Positions 6,290 through 45,152 of a DNA stretch of 64,000 bases are shown here, piece after piece. The first letter of the stretch is position 1, and each line of letters starts with the position of its first letter. Below the pieces are notes generated by a model. It searched no databases. It saw only the letters and a program-made list of their open reading frames with translations, and was not told the origin of the DNA. The position numbers and the translations under genes are program-made. This DNA is from Dictyostelium discoideum (lineage: Eukaryota), in contig CM000150.2 in the NCBI GenBank assembly GCA_000004695.1, positions 3,232,001 to 3,296,000 of the forward strand, given 5' to 3'.

Positions 6290-6620
6290 ATATGGAAAAA
6301 TAGTATTTCTTTATTCATCAATAAATTGTTTAAGTTTTAATAAATAATAAATAAATAAATAAAAATAATAATAATAAATAAATAGATGAACGAATTTAAC
6401 CATGAAGAAGATAATGAAAAATCAAATTTTGGTGAAGGGTTGGGTGATTTTTTTGTGAATCCATAATTTTAGAAAATAAATTATCATTTTCAGAAGATAT
6501 CCCTAGTGGTCTTGGTTATTTAATTGATTTTACTGATTAAGAAATTAAAACCAAATATTGAAAAAGTTGGAAGCTTAAAAGATTTATCATAAGAAAGTAT
6601 TATAAGAAATGAAAGATTTT
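6290..6620 (+). pseudogene. Degenerate third copy of the F-box gene family. It retains only the exon-2 tail, the intron and part of exon 3, with internal deletions.
   Basis: Recognisable homology to 5400..6114 (catatggaaaaatagtatttc... gtttaagttttaataaataata ... aaatcaaattttggtgaagggttgggtgattttttt ... ttatcattttcagaagat ... ttaattgattttactgat). Several stop codons and deletions are present. Confidence 0.55.
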
Positions 6621-6692
6621 AAATAAATAAAAATTAAATAAATAAAAAAAAAAATAAAAAAAATAAAAAGATAAAAAAAAAAAAGTTTTTAC

Positions 6693-6731
<39 letters not shown>

Positions 6732-7823
6732 GTGCAAAAATTAAAATAATTAATTGATTATTAAAGAATTTTTTTTAAAAATTATAATATATATATTGAT
6801 ATTTCAAATATAGATTATTTAATTTTAATTTTTTTAAAGTTCAAAATTCAAATTTTAAAATTATATTTAATATCAATCTATGAGATAGTTTCAGATTAAA
6901 AGATTTTAAAAAAAAAAAAAATTATAAAAAAAATTATGTAAAAATTAAAAAAAAAAAATAATGAATATCGTATGTGGTAATGGCTTAAGAATTTAAGATA
7001 AAAATAAAAATGAAAAAAAATAAAAAAATAAAAATGTAAAATAATTATGGAAATTAAGATAAAAATAAAAATCAAAAAGACAGGTTAAATGTCATCATTG
7101 GATATTTCCAACGAATTTTTTTTTTTTCAATTTTTTATTTTTTTTTATTTTTTTTTTTTTTATTTTTTTTTTTTTTTCATTCATTTTTATTTTATTTTAT
7201 TTTTTTTCCATTCAAAAAAAAAAAACACATATATTTTGTATCTATTTATTTTTAATAAAAAAAAAGGTGAAAAAAGGTAAAAAGATTTTTTTATTTATTT
7301 TTATTTTATTTTTTATTTTATTTTTTATTTTATTTTTGTTTTTTTTTATTTAAAAAAAAAAATAAAAAAAAAAGATTTTGTTTTTTTTTTTATTTTTCAA
7401 TTTTAACACACATGCCTATACATATAAGAAGAAAATTAATCTATAAGAAGAAAATTAATCTATAAACTATTGAAGATAAATAAAATCTATTTGTGTGTGT
7501 TTTATTTTTGTATTACAACTTTTTTTTTTTTTTCATATAAAATATTGTCACTAACATCACATTTTAATCATTAAAATAAAAAATAAAATAATAATAATAA
7601 AAAACTATAAATTAAATTAATTTATTAAATTAATTTATAAATAAAAACAACAAACAAATTTTAAATTAATTTTATCATTTTTTAAAAATTCTAAAACTAA
7701 CACCTAAATCATCAATTATTAGTTATAGAAATTTTTCATTATAATAATAATAAATAATAACAATATCAATAATAATATAAATAGTAATAGGAAATATATT
7801 ATAGGTTTTTTTTTTATTGAAAA

Positions 7824-8771
7824 ATGATGGAAGATGAAACCAAAGATAGTTATTTAGTTAAATTATTCAATGAATTTGATACTCGTAGTACAGGTTATTT
7901 AGAATATGACCAATTAAAACAAACTGTTTGCAAAATTACTGGTAGATCTGATTTCACTGTAGGTACTTTTTAATATTTAGGTATTAACCTAAAAAAAAAA
8001 AAATTAAAATATCTAATTATTTTTCTTCTCTTTCTTTTTTTTTATTTTTTTTTATTTTTTATTTTTTTTTTATTTAAAAAGGATGAAGAATTATCAACAT
8101 TATTAAATAAATTTGATACAGATAAAGATGGTAGAATTAGTTTAGATGAATTTTTAAATGGATGCAATAGTAATTCAATTGTTGATGAAGAAGATATTCA
8201 AACCTATATTTCAACGAGTAATAATAATAGTAGTTATAAATCATCAAATTTGAATAATTTATCAACTATTTCAACACCAGTTTTAAATGGTAATGGTAGT
8301 AATGGTATTCATCATAGTCATCTCGATGATGATGATGATGATAATAATAATGACGAAATAGAAGAGAATTCAATGATGAATGAAATTGGTGATTTAAGTA
8401 ATGATCAAGAGAAACATTTGAAATTTATTTTCTCATTATTTGATAAGGATGGTGATGGGTTAGTATCAATTGAACAATTACGTAATATGTTGGAAGATAT
8501 TAAAGTGAAATCCATTCAAGATGGTAATGGTGATGAGTTTGATAATGATAATGATGATGACGATATCGATTATATCATTAATACATTGTCAGCTGATGGT
8601 AGTAAAACAATTTCATTTGAAAACTTTATGAAAGCAATTGAACACATTAATTCACCAACACAATCAGTAATCACTGGTGGTTCACCAATGCATAATGATA
8701 CAACAGTTTTTGATGGTCCACATTCTGATAATGAATTAGAAGATGCTGATAATAATAATATAGATAATAAC

Positions 8772-24804: not shown

Positions 24805-24877
24805 TGCTCGATGCAGGGATCGAACCTGCGACCGTGGCGTTATTAGCACCACGCTCTGCCGACTGAGCTAATCGAGC
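24805..24877 (-). tRNA. tRNA-Ile, anticodon AAU.
   Basis: The reverse complement reads GCTCGAT-TA-GCTCAGTCGGCAGAGC-G-TGGTG-CTAATAA-CGCCA-CGGTC-GCAGG-TTCGATC-CCTGC-ATCGAGC-A. All stems pair in a canonical cloverleaf, A and B boxes are present, and the anticodon loop is CU-AAU-AA. Confidence 0.9.
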
Positions 24878-35639: not shown

Positions 35640-36805
35640 ATTAGATATACTTCAGGAATTGCTTCTGCAGTCCAAGGTGCCCAAGCAGCTGGTATTTCTA
35701 CAATTGATCTCTATGCATTCTTATGTAATCAATGGTAGGATAATAATAATAATAATTATTTATTTATTTTTATTTTCTTTTTTCCTAATCTTTGTTTTTT
35801 TATTTTTTTATTTATAGCTCAGGTAATAGTCCATCATCTTCAGCAATCCAAAGTATTGTATCTCAACTTCAAAATGATGGTGTTTCATACAATATGTTAT
35901 GGATTGATGTTGAACAATGTGATGGATGTTGGGGTGATTTAGGTGACAACGCAGCATTTGTTCAAGAAGCCGTTGAAACTGCCCAAAATCTTGGTGTAAG
36001 TTTATAATACTATATTAATGAATATTATAGTGTCGGGGGAACTCAGGAGAGGAATAGAAAGAATTGAGATTTTAAATATTGGTAATGGATTTCAATTAAC
36101 CATAGGATACAATTTTATTATTTTATTATTTTATTATATTATTATTTTATTATTTTATTTTTTAAAGGTTAATGTTGGTGTTTACAGTTCAATTGGTGAA
36201 TGGAGTCAAACTGTAGGTAATTTAAGTGGTTTAGGTGTTGACTTATGGTATGCTCACTATGATAATAATCCATCATTCTCTGATTCAAGCTTTTATGAAT
36301 TTGGTGGTTGGACTTCACCAACTATGAAACAATACGCTGGTAATGGAAATGAGTGTGGTGTTAGCGTTGATATGAATTTCTTTGGTTCTGGAACATGTTC
36401 AGCATCAACTGGTTCAGGTTCAGGTAAATTTTTTTTTCTATTTTTTTTTTTTTTTTTATTCTTTTTTTAAAAAAAAATTACTAACCATAACAACTCTTGG
36501 TAATCAGGCTCATCATCAGGTTCATCATCAGGTTCATCATCAGGTTCATCATCAGGTTCAGGTTCATCATCAGGTTCAGGTTCATCATCTGGTTCATCAT
36601 CAGGTTCAGGTAAATTTTTTTATTTTTATTTTTATTTTTATTTTTATTTTTATTTTTTTTTTTCTTCTTTCGGCAAACGATTACTAACCGCAGCAACTCA
36701 TTACCACCATCAGGATCAGGCTCATCATCATCAGGATCAGGCTCAGGTTCAGGTTCATCATCAGGCTCAGGTTCATCATCAGGATCGGGATCAGGTTCAT
36801 CATAA
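35307..36805 (+). CDS. Secreted GH25 (Chalaropsis-type) lysozyme-like protein with a C-terminal Ser/Gly repeat tail. Seven exons approx 35307..35397, 35459..35543, 35645..35734, 35818..35995, 36168..36426, 36508..36609, 36714..36805.
   Basis: Signal peptide MNKLISLLLVCLVAIALVNA. GH25-like blocks: MLWIDVEQCDGCWGD and LWYAHYDNNPSFSDSSFYEFGGWTSPTMKQYAGNGNECGVSVDMNFF. The tail is (GSSS/GSGS)n encoded across two exons that look duplicated together with their introns. All junctions are GTAAAT/GTAAGT...AG with consistent phases. Confidence 0.65.
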
Positions 36806-36904
36806 GCAGTTGAATTGGATGTTAAATAAATTTTAAAATTTAAAAAAAAAAAAAAAACAAGGATTATTACCAATTTTTTAAAATTTAAAAAAAGTACATC
36901 TTTG

Positions 36905-37832
36905 AATGTTGAAAAATAAAAAAAAAGTTAAAATATAAACAATATTGAATAGTAATAATTTTACTTTTATTTTTTTTTTATTTCATTATTTTATAATAAT
37001 TATATTTTTTTTTTTTTTATTTTTTTAAAATAAAAAAAAATAAAATAATAGGATAGGATTTGCAATTAAGCAGTCCAAACCTTAAGATTTGAAGTACCAA
37101 TATTTGTAATTGTTAATCTTCCACCACCAAAACTTCTACTGAATTGACCTTTGCTATGAATATCATTATCTTCATCAGGACTTAATCCACATTGAAATCT
37201 TACACGTCCATTTCCACCTCCAACAACTTCAACATTAACTTGAGTAGATCTTGGCCATGCCCATGTTGGAACGCCACTTACTTGACTACCACTATTGATA
37301 TAATACGGACTAATTTAATTTATTTAATGATAAAAAAAATAAACTATTAATATAATAAAAATATTAATTTAATTAAATAATTATAATTATAATTTACCCT
37401 GCCATTTTTTTAAATTTAATAATATTTTAGTTTATTTAAAAAAAAAAAAAATTCTTTATATAAAAAAAATAATTGAAAATGTTTGTTAATTAATTAAATA
37501 ATAATGATAATAATAATAATAAAAAAAAAAAATAAATCTATTTATTTTCATACCAACAAAAAAAAAAATTAAAAAAATAAAATAAAATAAAATATCTTCC
37601 CAAACATGTGGACCTTTGATTTGTGTTTTAAAAAGAAAATGAGTGTTAATGAAATAAAAAAAAAAAAAAAAAAAAACTTGGCTATTTGTTTTTTTATTAT
37701 TTAATTTTATTTAATTGTTACTTTTTTTTTTTTTTTTTTTTAACAATTGAAATAAGGTATATAGTTATAAGATTATATCTCTTCAAATAAATTAACTTTC
37801 AGAGATTATTAAATTTAACAAATTGAATTGAA
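36905..37832. repeat. Segmental duplication, copy A. About 0.93 kb, about 95% identical to 40258..41184.
   Basis: Collinear near-identity starts at gttaaaatataaacaatattgaatagtaataatttt and runs through ...aacaaattgaattgaattaaattgaa. The block includes a small two-exon gene and flanking AT-rich DNA. Confidence 0.8.
37066..37405 (-). CDS. Small Gly-rich protein of 85 aa, copy A. Exons on the minus strand 37405..37398 (ATGGCAGG) and 37309..37066; intron 88 nt.
   Basis: MAG|PYYINSGSQVSGVPTWAWPRSTQVNVEVVGGGNGRVRFQCGLSPDEDNDIHSKGQFSRSFGGGRLTITNIGTSNLKVWTA*. Donor GG|GTAAAT and acceptor AAATTAG are in phase 2. Not in the ORF track because its first exon is only 8 nt. No family recognised. Confidence 0.5.
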
Positions 37833-38164
37833 TTAAATTGAACTTTTATTTTTTTTTTTTTTTTTTTTTTTATTTTTTTTTTTATTTTTTTATTTTTTTT
37901 TTTTTGGTCTAAGTACAGTTTCACAACTTGGTCTACGTTTGTATTCACAATGATGATCAAAAGTCTTGAGTAATAATTCTGACGTTGTTGCTGAACTGAA
38001 ATTCAATGATTCTACTTAAAAAAAAAAAATGAAATTTTAAAAAAGACAAGATAATAATAAAAATAATTAAAAAAAAAAATAGATTTATTTTTTTATTTTA
38101 TTATATATATACATATTTTTTATATATATTGTAATTTAACTAAATTGAAACAAAAAATATTAAA

Positions 38165-39230
38165 TTAATTTAAATACGGTATTGGAATTAAATCAATTCT
38201 TTGTTTGAGAGCATAAAGGTCAATAGTTAATGGACGAGCATTTGCTGGTGGATTTGGAAAGAATAAAGAGTTTGGTTGAATGGTAATGGTGAAGATTGGA
38301 TTATTTGGTGTATTATTTGGTGTATTATTATTATGTAAAAAACCTGTAATTGGTGTTTGTTGATTTGATAATCTTCTATATTTATTTATATCACGTGCTG
38401 TAAATCCTTCAGAACCAAATGAAATAATTGCTGATGGATTGACAATACTAACACTACCATCAAAAACAACTAAACAAAACTTTTTTAAATTACTAACACC
38501 TAAAGGCCATAATTGAAGTAAAAAAACTATGTTTACATCAGTATCAAAATAATCGGTACATTTGTTGAATGATTGAGTTTTAGTTTGTGCTTTATAATTT
38601 ACTTCAAAGATTAATAAAACACGTCTTGGATATTGACTTGGTACACTTTCATAGCTTCCATCTGGATTATAAACTGTATTCTCATCAATAACAAGATCAG
38701 AACTTCCTGAACCAGTAATATGACCTTGAGCTCTGCAATAAATTGATATTAATTCATTCATTTCAAATACTACTCTTCCATGATATACTGATTCACTTAA
38801 TTTATTAATTATTACTAAACCATTTAATAAAAATGCATTTTTATTATAACTATGATCATTTAAAAAAGTTTTTGAATTTATATTCTTTTGAACTACAAAA
38901 CCTTTATAACCATATTTTAAAAGTTCAATATTCTAAATTTATTATTTAAAAATAAAAATTATTAATAAAATTAATATTTAATTTATTATTATTAATTTTA
39001 ATTAAACAACTTACATTTCTAATAAAAATTATTTTCTCTTCGTTGGGTCCCATTTTTGTAATATCTAAATATCTTAAATTGTTCATTTTGATGACACGAT
39101 GTGAAGGAATTCCATTGACTAAATCATCTTCTACCTTTTCTTTTTCATAATCTGAATTATTTTTTTTAAATTTTGAAAAAAATTTCATTTGTGTATTTGA
39201 TCTATTTTCAAATCCAATAGAAGATATCAT
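38165..39230 (-). CDS. Hypothetical protein of about 327 aa. Exons on the minus strand 39230..39015 and 38932..38165. It lies between the two copies of the segmental duplication.
   Basis: ATG at 39230..39228 (MISSIGFENRSN...); GTAAGT donor; an 82-nt intron; AAATTTAG acceptor in phase 0. The second exon ends ...PLTIDLYALKQRIDLIPIPYLN*. No confident family assignment. Confidence 0.5.
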
Positions 39231-40257
39231 TATTAATATACAATTAATTATACAACAATAAAAACAATAGAAAAAAGAAGTATCATAGAATAAAAAAAAA
39301 AGTAAATATAAAAAAAAAAAAAAAAACAAATAATAATTATTAGAATTACATATTTCTATATTAATTAAAAATTTCTAATATTTACCTTATATATATATTT
39401 TAAATGAATTGAAATAAATTTGTTTTTGTGAAAAAAATTAAAATAAAAAAAAATAGAAACAATAATTAAAATAAAAAAAAAAATTAAAATAAAAAATAAA
39501 AAATAAGATTAACGCAATTTCATATGAAAAACCAATTTTGTAAATGATTTAAAATGGTAAATAATAAAACAAAAATAATACAAAACAAAAGACAAATGTA
39601 GAAAAAACAAAAAAAAAAAAAAAATAAAAAAAAAAAAAATAATATTTTATACTGACCATAATATGTTAAACATGTTCTAAATAAAATAATTTTTTTGTTT
39701 TCTAAATTTTCTCTATTTTTCTTTAATCGAATTCAATTGAATTATTTATTATAATTCTTCATCATGATTTGAATCTTTAGTACCATCAATTGTTGATTAA
39801 ATTGAATTGTAGCTAATTTTCTATACAATTCTGTTCACATAATTTTAAATGGTGAACCTTCAAAACCACCATCTTGTTGTAATTCTGATGTTTCTTGTTG
39901 TTTTAAAATACCAACCCCAAAATGATCACATTTTAAATTTGAAACAAGAATAATTGTTAATTTACCAGAAATGTAAATTTCATATTTTGAAAACAATAAA
40001 AATTTACCTAATGAAAATTGATATTAATATATGTTTGAAAAAAATAAAGATTAAAAAAAAATAAAAAAAAAAACACACATTATTTTTTTATTTTTATCAC
40101 ATATAAACAAATAATGTCATTAAATAATTTAATTAAAATTTATAAAACAACACAAACTCAAACCATTTTTGAGATACAATTGCATCAACAGTATCAAAAA
40201 ATATTGGCATTAAAATGGGATTGGCAACAATCTATTCAATTGAAACGATTGAAAATG

Positions 40258-41184
40258 TTGAAAAATAAAAAAAAAAAGTTAAAATATAAACAATATTGAA
40301 TAGTAATAATTTTATTTTTTTATTTCATTATTTTATAATAATTATATTTATTACTTTTATTTTTTTTTTTTATTTTTTTAAAATAAAAAAAATAAAAAAT
40401 AATAGGATTGGATTTGCAATTAAGCAGTCCAAACCTTAGGATTTGAAGTACCAATATTTGTAATTGTTAATCTTCCTCCACCAAAACTTCTTCTGAATTG
40501 ACCTTTGCTATGAATATCATTATCTTCATCAGGACTTAATCCACATTGAAATCTTACACGTCCATTTCCACCTCCAACAACTTCAACATTAACTTGAGTA
40601 GATCTTGGCCATGCCCATGTTGGAACGCCACTTACTTGACTACCACTATTGATATAATATGGACTAATTTAATTTATTTAATGATTTAAAAAATAAAATA
40701 TTAATATAATAAAAATATTAATTTAATTAAATAATTTATATTATAATTTTTACCCTGCCATTTTTTTAAATTCAATAATATTTTAGTTTTTAAAAAAAAA
40801 AAAAAATTATTTATATAAAAAAATAATTGAAAATTTTTGTTAATTAATTAAATGATGATAATAATAATAATAAAAAAAAAAAAAAAAAACTATTTATTTT
40901 CATACCAACAAAAAAAAAAATAAAATATCTTCCCAAATATGTGGACCTTTGATTTGTGTTTTAAAAAGAAAATGAGTGTTAATGAAATAAAAAAAAAAAA
41001 AAAAAAAAAACTTGGCTATTTGTTTTTTTATTATTTAATTTTATTTAATTGTTACTTTTTTTTTTTTTTTTTTTTTTAACAATTGAAATAAGGTATATAG
41101 TTATAAGATTATATCTCTTCAAATAAATTAACTTTCAGAGATTATTAAATTTAACAAATTGAATTGAATTAAATTGAATATTTA
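40258..41184. repeat. Segmental duplication, copy B, matching 36905..37832.
   Basis: See copy A. Confidence 0.8.
40420..40761 (-). CDS. Small Gly-rich protein of 85 aa, copy B. Exons 40761..40754 and 40663..40420. It differs from copy A by two substitutions, S59R and L76P.
   Basis: Same exon/intron structure as copy A. The substitutions ttcagAagaagt (R) and aaatcCtaag (P) are non-synonymous and there is also a synonymous change, consistent with both copies being maintained. Confidence 0.5.
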
Positions 41185-41262
41185 ATTAAATTGAATTTAT
41201 CATAAAGTGATTTTATAGTTATGAGAGTTGGAAATGAGTAATTCTATTTTAAAAACCATAAT

Positions 41263-41294
<32 letters not shown>

Positions 41295-41621: not shown

Positions 41622-41835
41622 CTAAAATGTAATATTTAAAATCTTACATTTGGATTATTTAAATTTTCAATTGCATGTAAATAAATTAATTGGTCATTAT
41701 GTTTAAATTCCACTTTATTCCATTTCTTTAAAAAAACTAAATCAACATAAATTTGATAAGCTAAATGAATTTGAATCATATAATGAGTTTCACTATATTT
41801 ATTCAATAAATCTTCAAATAAATTTTCTAATGACA
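41351..41835 (-). CDS. Hypothetical small protein of about 133 aa. Exons on the minus strand ~41835..41648 and 41551..41351.
   Basis: MSLENLFEDLLNKYSETHYMIQIHLAYQIYVDLVFLKKWNKVEFKHNDQLIYLHAIENLNNPN | NYNIVIPCKSTSIWSVESIKKMFNNLNNLPIDCKSFTLGIQDEDSSISYYELSFNTGLSDPINSLI*. Donor GTAAGA; the intron is A-rich; acceptor ...AAAAAG. My ATG position differs by 1 nt from the ORF-track frame. Confidence 0.45.
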
Positions 41836-42160
41836 TTTTAAACAAACAAAAGTGGGAGGTTTTCTTTTGTGGTTAACAGATCTGTTGCCGTTGAACTACA
41901 ATTTTTTTTTTTTTTTTTTGTTTTTTAAAAAAAAAAAATGAAAAAAAAAAAAAAATATTAAAAAAAATAATTTATCATTTTTTGTGTGTCACCACTTTTT
42001 TTTTTTTTAATTTCCTATTTTTTTTTTTTTTTTAAATTTTTTATATTTCATTATTTTTAATTAACTACTTTATTTATTTTTTTATTTTATTTCTTTTTTT
42101 TTTTCTCAAAAAAAAAGAAATAAAGAAATAATTAATATCTACATATTTTATAGATATCAT

Positions 42161-42208: not shown

Positions 42209-45152
42209 ATGAGAAAATTAGTAATATTAATTATTTTATCAATTGTGTGTAGTTTATTTATTGGATCGATTGAATCAGTAGATACTAGTAAATTTAAGAC
42301 TTGTAAAGATTCACACTTTTGTAAAAGAAATAGAGTTTCACATGAAGTTGGAGTAATGAATGAAATGAAATCCAAACAAAATTTTAACATTGTAGAAGGT
42401 TCAATTAAATTGGTAAAGCAAGAGAATACCATTTACTTTGATTTACAAGAACAAAATCAAAAGAGTAATCTATTAACAATGAAACTTGAAATCTATGAAG
42501 GAGGTATCGTAAGAATGAGAGCTCAAGAAAAAGAACCATTATTGAATAAGCAACGTTACCAAGTTCAAGATGTTTTATTGGATACAATTAAAACCGTACC
42601 AATTCAATGGAAACAAGAACCTTCAAAACAATCAAACACTTTTTCATTTAAACATGGTGAAAAGGAGTGTTGTTATGTATTAGTACAATTGGTACCATTT
42701 AAATTGGATGTTTACATTATGAATGAATTGGCAATTACAACCAATAGTGATAATCTATTCCATTTCGAACCAATCTCTGATAAACCACAACCATTACCAC
42801 CAAAAGAAAAAAAATCTGAAGAAGAGAATAAAGAAGCTAATCAAGAAGAAGATAATAATAATAATAATAATGATAACAATGAAGAACAACAAGTTAGTAC
42901 AGAAGGTTATTGGGAAGAAAGATTTGGATCACATCAAGATAGTAAACCAAATGGACCAATGTCAATTGGTATGGATTTCACATTTGTTGGTAGTTCACAT
43001 GTTTATGGTATTCCAGAGCATACTACTCGTTTATCATTAAAATCAACCACTGGAAATGGTATCAATGAACAACCATACCGTCTTTACAATTTAGATGTAT
43101 TCGAGTACGAGATTGATAAAACCATGGCATTGTATGGTCATGTTCCATTAATGATCTCTCATGATACTAAAAAAACAGTTGGTGTATTTTGGTTGAATGC
43201 AGCTGAAACATTTGTCGATATCGAGGATGTAACCACACCAGTATCACCATCAAAGAAAACTCATTGGATTAGTGAATCTGGTATTATCGATGTATTCTAT
43301 TTAACTGGTCCAACACCATCAACAATCTTTAAACAATATGCATATCTAACTGGTACAACTGCATTACCACAAATGTTTTCATTGGGTTATCATCAATGTA
43401 AATGGAATTATAAAGTAAGTTACAATAAAAAAAAAAAAAAAAAAAATTATAATAATAATAATAATAATAATAATAATTAATAAAATACTAATATTATTAT
43501 TATTTTTTTTTATTAAAAATTATTAGTCAGAAGATGATGTTAAACAAGTTGATAATGGATTTGATGAAAATCATATTCCATATGATGTAATTTGGTTAGA
43601 TATTGAACATACAGATGGAAAGAGATATTTCACTTGGGATAATAATAATTTCCCAACACCAGCTGATATGCAAAATATTATTGGTGCTAAACATAGAAAG
43701 ATGGTTACAATCGTTGATCCACATATCAAGAGAGATAACAATTATTATGTTCACTCTGAAGCAACTTCAAAAGGTTATTATATAAAGAATAAGGATGGTA
43801 ATGATTATGATGGTTGGTGTTGGCCAGGTTCTTCATCTTATTTGGATTTCACTAATCCAGAGATTCGTAAATGGTGGGCAACTCAATTTGGTTATGATAA
43901 ATACAAAGGTTCAACACCAAATCTTTACATTTGGAATGATATGAATGAACCATCAGTATTCAATGGTCCAGAAGTATCAATGCATAAAGATGCCAAACAT
44001 CATGGTGGTTTCGAACATCGTGACGTTCACAATCTCTATGGTTACTACTATCATATGGCATCGGCCGATGGTTTGGTTCAAAGAAATGCCGATCAAAATG
44101 ACCGTCCATTCGTTTTATCTCGTGCATTCTATGCTGGTTCTCAAAGAATTGGTGCCATTTGGACCGGTGATAACTCTGCCCAATGGTCACATCTCGAAAT
44201 TTCAAATCCAATGCTTTTATCAATGAATTTGGCCGGTATAACATTTAGTGGTGCCGATGTTGGTGGTTTCTTTGGTAATCCAGATGCTGAACTCTTAACT
44301 CGTTGGTATCAAGCTGGTGCATTCCAACCATTTTTTAGAGGTCATGCCCATTTAGATTCACGTCGTCGTGAACCTTGGTTATTCAATGAACCATACACTA
44401 CCATCATTAGAGAGGCAATCGTCAAACGTTACTCTTACCTTCCATTATGGTATACCACTTTCTATCAAAATACACTCAATGGTGCTCCAGTTATGAGACC
44501 ACTTTGGGTTCAATATCCAAAAGAAGCCAATCTCTTTGATGTTGATGATCATTATTTAATTGGTGATTCACTTTTAGTTAAACCAGTCACTCAACAATCT
44601 TGTAAAACTATGAAAGTCCTCTTACCAGGCCAAAGTGTCAATGAAATTTGGTATGATGTTGATACTGAGAAACCAATCAATGCTGGTGTCATCGAAATTG
44701 ATACTCCTTTAGAAAAGATTCCAGTTTATCAACGTGGTGGTTCAATCATTTCAAAGAAAGAAAGAGTTCGTAGAAGTACCTATCAAATGAGAGATGATCC
44801 ATACACTATTCGTATCGCTTTGGACTCTTCAAAATCTGCTCAAGGTCAATTATACATTGATGATGAACACTCTTTTGATTATAAAAAAGGTAAATTCCTC
44901 TACAGACAATTCACTTTCAAAGATAATGTTCTCTCATTTTCTGATGCCTCAAATAAAAGCTCAACCTCTTACAAACCAAATGTTACCATTGAAAAAATCG
45001 TTATCCTTGGTGTTCAAAAACCTCACTCGATCACTTGTAACATTACTGGTAAAGAAAAATTATCATTTGAATATGATTCAACTCTTTCAAAACTAACAAT
45101 CAGAAAACCAGATTTATTAGTTGATACTGATTTTATTATAAAATTAAATTAA
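42209..45152 (+). CDS. modA: Glucosidase II alpha subunit (GH31 neutral alpha-glucosidase, a GANAB orthologue). Exons 42209..43414 and 43527..45152; about 943 aa.
   Basis: Signal peptide; GH31 blocks GYHQCKWNYK|SEDDVKQVDNGFDENHIPYDVIWLDIEHTDGKRYFTWD, WNDMNEPSVF (catalytic nucleophile region), and GADVGGFFGNPDAELLTRWYQAGAFQPFFRGHAH. One intron AAA|GTAAGT...TATTAG in phase 0. The 943-aa size matches Dictyostelium ModA as I recall it. Confidence 0.85.

Follow-up and report, generated by a model that had tools for sequence, protein, structure and literature searches.

Two DUF8244 genes with an 8-nucleotide first exon and the DNA between them on chromosome 1 of Dictyostelium discoideum

Introduction

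DUF8244 (Pfam PF26736) is a family of small single-domain proteins of about 82–85 amino acids (aa) that carry the motifs (M)AGP, IPTW, T25, QAG-SP-E, F-R-FGG, N72 and T82 and that are found in dictyostelid amoebae and in bacteria. The closest described members are the Dictyostelium discoideum paralogues DDB_G0269702 and DDB_G0274299, each entered in Swiss-Prot as 'Uncharacterized protein', together with DDB_G0286957, DDB_G0287047 and members from other dictyostelids. The locus described here lies in a window of 64 kb on chromosome 1 of D. discoideum AX4 (GenBank contig CM000150.2, positions 3,232,001 to 3,296,000), and positions given without a contig are positions in this window. It holds two more members of the family, DDB_G0270604 (copy 1) and DDB_G0295751 (copy 2), in two direct copies of a module of about 0.93 kb, with a third gene, DDB_G0270600, between them. 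Both proteins show the form and the motifs of the family, and copy 2 deviates from this form at two positions (S60R and L78P).

The dictyostelid paralogues are likewise 82–85 aa long with the same motifs, the closest ones at 66–78% identity, and they have the same micro-exon of 8–9 nucleotides (nt) encoding MAG. The window pair differs from them in its locus and in a Cys at position 43 (FQCG), and it has a single intron, whereas the paralogues of D. purpureum and D. firmibasis have extra introns. In bacteria (Streptomyces spp., Limnoraphis robusta, Hydrococcus and Caldilineales), DUF8244 proteins have the same single-domain architecture, the same motifs and the MAGP start at 30–39% identity; unlike the Dictyostelium genes, theirs lack an intron, and some of them encode signal peptides. 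At the level of the locus, the nearest described systems are tandem duplications with a templated insertion at the junction, of the type ascribed to fork stalling and template switching or microhomology-mediated break-induced replication (FoSTeS/MMBIR). The locus likewise has an A-insert-A structure with an insert that appears to be partly copied from the same chromosome, but its mechanism has to be read back from the end product, and this in AT-rich DNA.

Both genes, their exact splice model and the family are already on record, and the finding adds little to that record. The best explanation of the whole, to which a probability of about 0.85 is given, is that these are two annotated DUF8244 paralogues which arose by a duplication with a captured insert in the D. 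discoideum lineage, which later underwent gene conversion, and of which copy 2 appears to be dispensable.

The Two Copies and Their Micro-Exon

The window has a G+C content of 21% with long A/T runs, and the similarity of the direct repeats is far above this low-complexity background, which shows that the duplication is real. The repeats are returned by blastn as a single alignment of 950 columns with 93.2% identity, 28 mismatches and 16 gap openings (E = 0). At aligned sites the copies are 97% identical, and if substitutions only are counted they differ at 26 of 840 sites (3.1%); the gaps in the MAFFT and blastn alignments of the copies are mostly changes in the length of homopolymer runs. 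A preliminary description of this DNA had reported two direct copies of about 0.93 kb, and blastn bears this out, with the location right and the ends off by up to 10 nt (Table 1). It had also stated correctly that flanking non-coding DNA was duplicated, as the whole upstream and downstream regions lie inside both units. There is no third copy within the 64-kb window. Three further assemblies labelled D. discoideum (L003, L004 and L025) were compared, and the module-gene-module arrangement is also found in L004 and L025, which are independent of AX4; an assembly artefact is thereby ruled out.

Each copy contains a gene on the minus strand, and the model first proposed for it, with an 8-nt first exon, an intron of 88 or 90 nt and a second exon of 244 nt, proved right: the products match the reference proteins residue for residue (XP_646167.1 for copy 1 and XP_002649196.1 for copy 2 by exact-sequence look-up), and the protein sequence was correct as written. 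The spliced product of each copy has 83 residues and then a stop, not the 85 aa initially counted. Four coding differences separate the copies, namely S60R, L78P and synonymous changes at Pro4 (CCG/CCA) and Gly65 (GGT/GGA); the two non-synonymous changes had been listed, but only one of the two synonymous ones. The gene had further been said to escape open reading frame (ORF) finders, and the minus-strand ORF of exon 2 is indeed missing from the program-made ORF list.

Met occurs in the 83-aa protein only at the N-terminus, so the start codon can come only from the 8-nt exon. All five copies examined from the D. discoideum complex share this exon and its GT donor without a difference. Micro-exons are also present in paralogues, one of 8 nt in D. 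purpureum (ATGGCAGG, followed by GT) and one of 9 nt in D. firmibasis (ATGGCTGGT, followed by GT), the latter reflecting an apparent one-base slide of the intron relative to D. purpureum. By giving Met-Ala-Gly, the micro-exon restores the MAGP N-terminus that is contiguous in the intron-less bacterial genes, and in secreted variants of the family the predicted cleavage of the signal peptide leaves an identical AGP end. AX4 copy 1 differs from the two L025 copies at 4–5 synonymous sites and at no non-synonymous one. On these comparisons the two-exon model with an 8-nt first exon is well supported, and expression of either copy, notably of copy 2, is a prediction from it.

Two side observations concern the module itself. 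In D. citrinum (L001, 8305–8320) the micro-exon (ATGTCAGGGG) reads ATGTCAGGGGTATT, one G more than in D. discoideum, which breaks the 8-nt-exon model there; this could be a homopolymer error of the assembly or a real change. The public annotation of D. citrinum uses a non-conserved upstream exon (MTITS...) instead. The second observation is a block that is not AT-rich, in gene sense AACACAAATCAAAGGTCCACAT(G/A)TTTGGGAAGATATTTT, at 37598–37660 and 40931–40993, about 200–250 nt 5' of the ATG. Its retention in both copies, and the fact that it can still be recognised in D. citrinum (L001, about 8120–8180), make this block a candidate promoter element or transcription start region.

Family Membership and Distribution

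The product had been thought to belong, perhaps, to an undescribed small-protein family. This suggestion does not hold, since the family is PF26736/DUF8244, with dictyostelid and bacterial members. A precomputed match to PF26736 is recorded on the L004 gene at 6470–6811, whose translation is exactly the copy-2 protein, and on every homologue returned. Scans of the 83-aa proteins with local libraries of Pfam, NCBIfam and PADLOC gave no family match, and the local copy of Pfam is one without the PF26736 model, which explains the empty Pfam scans. The 327-aa gene reported on the same strand between the copies is real; its coding sequence (CDS) was located, and exact-sequence look-up identifies it as DDB_G0270600. 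It falls into one sequence cluster with DDB_G0270604 and DDB_G0295751 because an old fused 438-aa model joins the sequences of the three genes. A literature search on the six D. discoideum DUF8244 genes, their UniProt entries, DUF8244 and PF26736 found nothing.

At least six members occur in D. discoideum and three in D. purpureum, and others are found in D. firmibasis, D. citrinum, Heterostelium and Acytostelium, the Acytostelium protein carrying a signal peptide. A profile of the window protein and its relatives gave 46 matches at E ≤ 1e-3 among 1.84 billion representative proteins, and most of these have 80–90 residues and start MAGP. Matches to two very long proteins (P0014 and P0035, the latter with Big_1 and invasin repeats) were discounted as artefacts of repeats. 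The named bacterial members come from ten species of Streptomyces, from the cyanobacteria Limnoraphis and Hydrococcus, and from Caldilineales (Chloroflexi). Bacterial loci were found by a profile scan of genome contigs with a narrow bacterial alignment, and a metagenome scan with the DUF8244 profile added only four loci of the Caldilineales type. In a neighbour-joining tree of about 90 members, computed without support values, the dictyostelid sequences are placed in several deep branches around one large bacterial clade, a placement that points to no direction of transfer between bacteria and dictyostelids. The patchy distribution over dictyostelids and three bacterial phyla implies horizontal transfer. 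The Streptomyces and Limnoraphis proteins are about 83% identical, by a count on their sequences.

Origin and Later History of the Duplication

In D. citrinum the locus (L001) holds one module, between the acidic-repeat gene and Sen15-modA. The left flank of AX4 copy 1 is contiguous with this single-copy locus. The ancestral flanks are the outer ones, left of copy 1 and right of copy 2, hence the A-insert-A structure. The D. citrinum relative of DDB_G0270600 is on the same contig about 220 kb from the module, beside a cellulose-synthase gene and with conserved non-coding flanks. Given the single module in D. citrinum and this distant relative of the middle gene, the arrangement probably arose in the D. 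discoideum lineage, which would place the duplication after the split from D. citrinum. Homologues of DDB_G0270600 are found only in the D. discoideum complex, and the protein has no significant Pfam domain. Its intron has been kept, so the copy was made at the DNA level. For the parts of the insert at 37843–38081 and 39627–40253, no source was identified among the fetched loci. Within the first of these, between DDB_G0270600 and copy 1, lies a coding-looking fragment at 37906–38020 (minus strand), which the old fused 438-aa model uses as an exon, as does, in a different frame, a 342-aa model of another assembly; the fragment, too, had no source among the fetched loci.

The course of events proposed here starts from one unit between the acidic-repeat gene and Sen15-modA, a state that D. 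citrinum would have kept. In the D. discoideum lineage the unit would have been duplicated in tandem, and a 2.4-kb composite piece, which includes an intron-bearing DNA-level copy of DDB_G0270600, would have been caught at the junction. Template switching, or repair that captures a fragment, is expected to leave just such a duplication with a templated insertion at the junction, and we infer that replication template switching or a fragment-capturing repair may have acted at this locus. Afterwards, the copies would have exchanged sequence by gene conversion, and the coding sequence would have been held under purifying selection.

The event had been described as recent. That agrees with its absence from D. 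citrinum but not with the presence of the insertion in three other assemblies, two of which stand at 5–7% non-coding divergence from AX4. Being common to these three, the insertion predates the divergence of the assemblies. The copies in AX4 are only 3.1% apart, their non-coding flanks are duplicated and D. citrinum is single-copy, all of which would fit a very recent simple duplication in AX4 with the middle gene already present or arriving simultaneously. Such an origin is nevertheless unlikely, as the same insertion is found in the same place in L025, with both copies, and in L003, with copy 1 and the two ends of copy 2. Both assemblies stand 5–7% apart from AX4 in this DNA, and the two L025 copies are themselves 6.3% apart. 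Module distances are 4.6–6.7% between assemblies and about 26% to D. citrinum. Moreover, at 8 informative sites both AX4 copies have one base and all three copies of L025 and L003 have the other, a pattern that points to homogenisation and not to youth. Such a pattern of shared bases calls for gene conversion between the copies, so the closeness of the AX4 pair gives no date for the event, and the 3.1%, which is below every distance between assemblies, is best explained by conversion after an older duplication. As a side observation, the Sen15-side flank extends about 100 nt further in copy 1 of L025 than in that of AX4 (L025 9239–9378 compared with 41134–41284). This extra flank suggests that the duplicated unit probably measured 1.03 kb or more at first and that AX4 later lost its junction-proximal part.

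The two-copy state might instead be ancestral, with one module and the middle gene later lost from D. citrinum through recombination of the direct repeats. Repeats of 0.9 kb recombine readily, L003 shows that deletions happen at the locus, and the DDB_G0270600 segment is only 5.5% diverged from its D. citrinum copy. This scenario appears no likelier than a very recent origin, however. The D. citrinum relative of DDB_G0270600 lies elsewhere with conserved flanks, so an extra loss or move in D. discoideum would be needed, and the AX4 copies are 3.1% apart as against 26% to the D. citrinum module. A duplication in the D. discoideum lineage followed by conversion therefore remains the preferred explanation.

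The later fate of the copies seems to have been unequal. Judged against D. citrinum, L003 and L025, three of the four AX4 coding changes are derived in copy 2, and S60R and L78P are missing from both L025 copies, from L003 and from D. citrinum. Position 60 is variable across the wider DUF8244 family. Position 78 is L, I, V or C in all 28 aligned members, and copy 2 has Pro there, in the last strand. The change at this conserved hydrophobic position, together with the deletion of the gene body in L003, is the reason why copy 2 appears to be the dispensable copy.

Predicted Fold

An AlphaFold2 model computed from a seven-sequence alignment has eight strands, a mean predicted local distance difference test (pLDDT) score of 89.2 and a predicted template modelling (pTM) score of 0.78. 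With high confidence, the 83-aa protein is predicted to be a stand-alone, generic eight-stranded jelly-roll (double-stranded beta-helix). The label 'Gly-rich' in the preliminary description is correct for the composition (13 of 83 residues), but the compact predicted beta-fold is not that of a low-complexity Gly-rich protein. With no match in the local Pfam copy and a folded beta domain (pLDDT 89), the window protein does not match what is presumably the character of the hssA/2C/7E-type Gly/Ser-rich family either. Foldseek found no match to the model in the PDB at E ≤ 0.001, and the DUF8244 profile gave chance-level matches only to PDB sequences (best E = 0.029). There is no signal peptide in the Dictyostelium window proteins.

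The Trp, Thr, Glu, Arg and Asn residues that are conserved, with the Gly-Gly turns, may form a binding surface. The DUF8244 protein is tentatively read, at somewhat less than even odds, as a cytosolic module for binding and not as an enzyme. The double-stranded beta-helix that the model predicts is also the fold of the cupin superfamily, which raises the alternative that DUF8244 proteins are small cupin-type enzymes or metal-binding proteins. The His/Glu metal-ligand motifs of that superfamily are absent, however: no conserved His or other metal-ligand pattern exists in the 28 aligned members, nor do the two cupin metal motifs, and the sole His of the AX4 proteins (H55) is not conserved. It is for this lack of a conserved ligand pattern that DUF8244 is not placed among the cupin enzymes. 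Pfam gave no cupin match even at E ≤ 10, and the structural neighbours are equally non-enzymatic jelly-rolls, namely the CENP-C/Mif2p dimerisation domain, nucleoplasmin, GOLD, PirA and macroglobulin domains. A cupin-type function is thus very improbable. To the minimal cupins (the CENP-C/Mif2p cupin dimerisation domain and Cupin_2 proteins) the resemblance is one of fold only, with 8–17% identity, no metal motifs and no Pfam match.

A Bacterial Gene Pair

In the ten Streptomyces species, only about 0.8 kb around the DUF8244 gene is conserved, while the flanks are unrelated and the places non-syntenic; the G+C content of this cassette is 62% versus 68–70% in its surroundings. The cassette consists of the DUF8244 gene, a spacer of 9 nt (in L005) and a 91-aa ORF that is conserved in 10 of 10 species. 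The partner protein of about 90 aa has the motifs WT-DKS ... GDT-YK-L ... QIRLS ... GGHT. Homologues of it lie 3' of the DUF8244 gene in Limnoraphis (55% identity, with a signal peptide) and in L020, a metagenomic contig of 345 kb, where both proteins have signal peptides. The partner has no family match in the local libraries of Pfam, NCBIfam and PADLOC. Its profile matches residues 287–360 of PDB entry 7xbj_A, '40kDa insecticidal toxin' (E = 5.5e-4), and PMC12288946 cites a structure paper on Txp40 whose title states homology to the toxin-antitoxin system; the link of the partner to toxin-antitoxin toxins consists of this one PDB match and this one title. A different association is seen in P0025, a eukaryote-like 249-aa protein from a metagenomic contig of 918 bp, in which an N-terminal TIR_2 domain (E = 6e-10) is fused to a C-terminal DUF8244 domain and which groups with DDB_G0286957 and DDB_G0287047 in the neighbour-joining tree.

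The pairing in three bacterial lineages and the TIR fusion suggest that DUF8244 may bind a toxin-like partner. Carried over by analogy to the Dictyostelium genes, binding to a partner that resembles the C-terminal domain (CTD) of Txp40 is doubtful. It is less probable again that DUF8244 is a toxin-binding jelly-roll which pairs with, neutralises or escorts a Txp40-CTD/RelE-like toxin, so that the stand-alone cytosolic copies of the bacterivorous dictyostelids, and a TIR-fused copy in one protist, would be toxin neutralisers or sensors, the module being shared with bacteria by horizontal transfer. The comparison with antitoxins gives a divided result. The DUF8244 gene lies directly upstream of the co-oriented partner gene, a putative toxin-family member, in Streptomyces (10 loci), Limnoraphis and L020, but not in Hydrococcus, Caldilineales or the L030/L031 loci, and in place of a cytoplasmic protein with a DNA-binding domain (ribbon-helix-helix, helix-turn-helix or AbrB) there is a predicted all-beta jelly-roll, several times with a signal peptide. 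Alternatively, DUF8244 and its Txp40-CTD-like neighbour could form a secreted two-component toxin from which the amoeba genes derive. This is slightly more remote still, because the Streptomyces pair and the Dictyostelium proteins are without signal peptides, no partner is present in the Dictyostelium window, and the resemblance to PirA is no better than that to dozens of other jelly-rolls. A subunit of a PirA-type binary insecticidal toxin was also considered and rejected, with neither a specific similarity to PirA nor a PirB-like partner found.

Neighbouring Genes and Feature Coordinates

Just outside copy 1, at 36481–36810 on the minus strand, is an Asp/Glu/Pro-rich repeat (DEPDPDPDDEPEPDD...) with tandem units of 12/18 nt (36500–36620), and this repeat is also present in D. 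citrinum. An assignment of the upstream neighbour as a GH25 lysozyme was dropped, as it has no Pfam support. A role of a tRNA-targeted retroelement at the locus was rejected, since the sole tRNA gene in the window is 12 kb away. The features are collected in Table 1.

Table 1. Coordinates of features at the DUF8244 locus, in compared assemblies and in bacterial contigs
Feature	Position	Strand	Remarks
Repeat copy 1	36905–37842	-	Complete unit: ~160 nt 3' of stop, DDB_G0270604, ~435 nt 5' of ATG; blastn and MAFFT against copy 2
Copy 1 exon 1	37398–37405	-	ATGGCAGG (Met-Ala-Gl...), donor GTAAAT
Copy 1 intron	37310–37397	-	88 nt, GTAAAT...TTAG, phase 2
Copy 1 exon 2	37066–37309	-	244 nt including stop; product with exon 1 is DDB_G0270604 / Q55DG4
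Inter-repeat DNA	37843–40253	.	2.4-kb composite insertion; missing from D. citrinum L001, found in L003, L004 and L025
DDB_G0270600 segment	38082–39626	-	91% match to D. citrinum L002; carries DDB_G0270600 with intron
DDB_G0270600	38165–39230	-	327 aa; CDS 38165–38932 and 39015–39230; 82-nt intron 38933–39014
Repeat copy 2	40254–41178	-	Complete unit with DDB_G0295751; right flank runs into the Sen15-modA side as in D. citrinum
Copy 2 exon 1	40754–40761	-	ATGGCAGG, donor GTAAAA
Copy 2 intron	40664–40753	-	90 nt
Copy 2 exon 2	40420–40663	-	244 nt; product is DDB_G0295751 / C7FZX4, with S60R and L78P
Sen15-domain gene	41636–41845	-	
GH31 alpha-glucosidase start	42209–43480	+	Gal_mutarotas_2 domain
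tRNA-Ile(AAT) gene	24805–24877	-	
Assembly L004			Identical to AX4 across the region
Assembly L025			Both copies present, both encoding the copy-1 protein
Assembly L003			Copy 1 and DDB_G0270600 intact; copy 2 is two module ends only; window 40315–40909 with the whole gene missing
Two-gene cassettes, L005–L014	5770–6596		Streptomyces
Two-gene cassette, L015	6001–6795		
Two-gene cassette, L020	5001–5749		

Discussion

Several points weigh against the explanation favoured here. The low divergence of the DDB_G0270600 segment (38114–39523) from its D. citrinum copy (L002 7720–9075; 5.5%) is not predicted by the simple scenario: the same-locus segments of L025 (7668–9056) and L003 (7669–9060) are 6.0–6.5% diverged from the AX4 segment, which is not below the D. 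citrinum figure, while flanking orthologous DNA is 3–4 times more diverged between species than between assemblies. That the D. citrinum copy is no more distant than copies at the same locus suggests that the segment may be mobile, recently exchanged, or converted from a paralogue not seen here. More than one order of events would also fit, as there may have been a duplication with capture, two separate events, or a loss in D. citrinum by repeat recombination, and the polarity calls lean on a poorly alignable AT-rich outgroup at 26% divergence. With regard to function, Pfam, NCBIfam, PADLOC and PDB sequences yield no functional match. The bacterial partner ORF is missing from the Hydrococcus, Caldilineales and L030/L031 loci and has no homologue within the 64-kb Dictyostelium window, and some bacterial pairs have signal peptides on both proteins, which is a poor fit to a classical cytoplasmic antitoxin.

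The duplication is an ordinary lineage-specific rearrangement with an instructive later history. The locus provides a clean example of a functional 8-nt first exon, backed by intron-less bacterial homologues that start MAGP. It also offers a dated case of tandem duplication in which a gene was captured and in which the copies apparently then underwent conversion, while one of them decayed or was lost. For the function of DUF8244, the pairing of genes in bacteria is the one lead that merits pursuit. If this lead holds, the amoeba DUF8244 proteins could relate to the handling of bacterial toxins, and if they are indeed toxin-binding modules, the change in copy number, the conversion and the loss of a copy seen at this locus would reflect an arms race between amoeba and bacterium.

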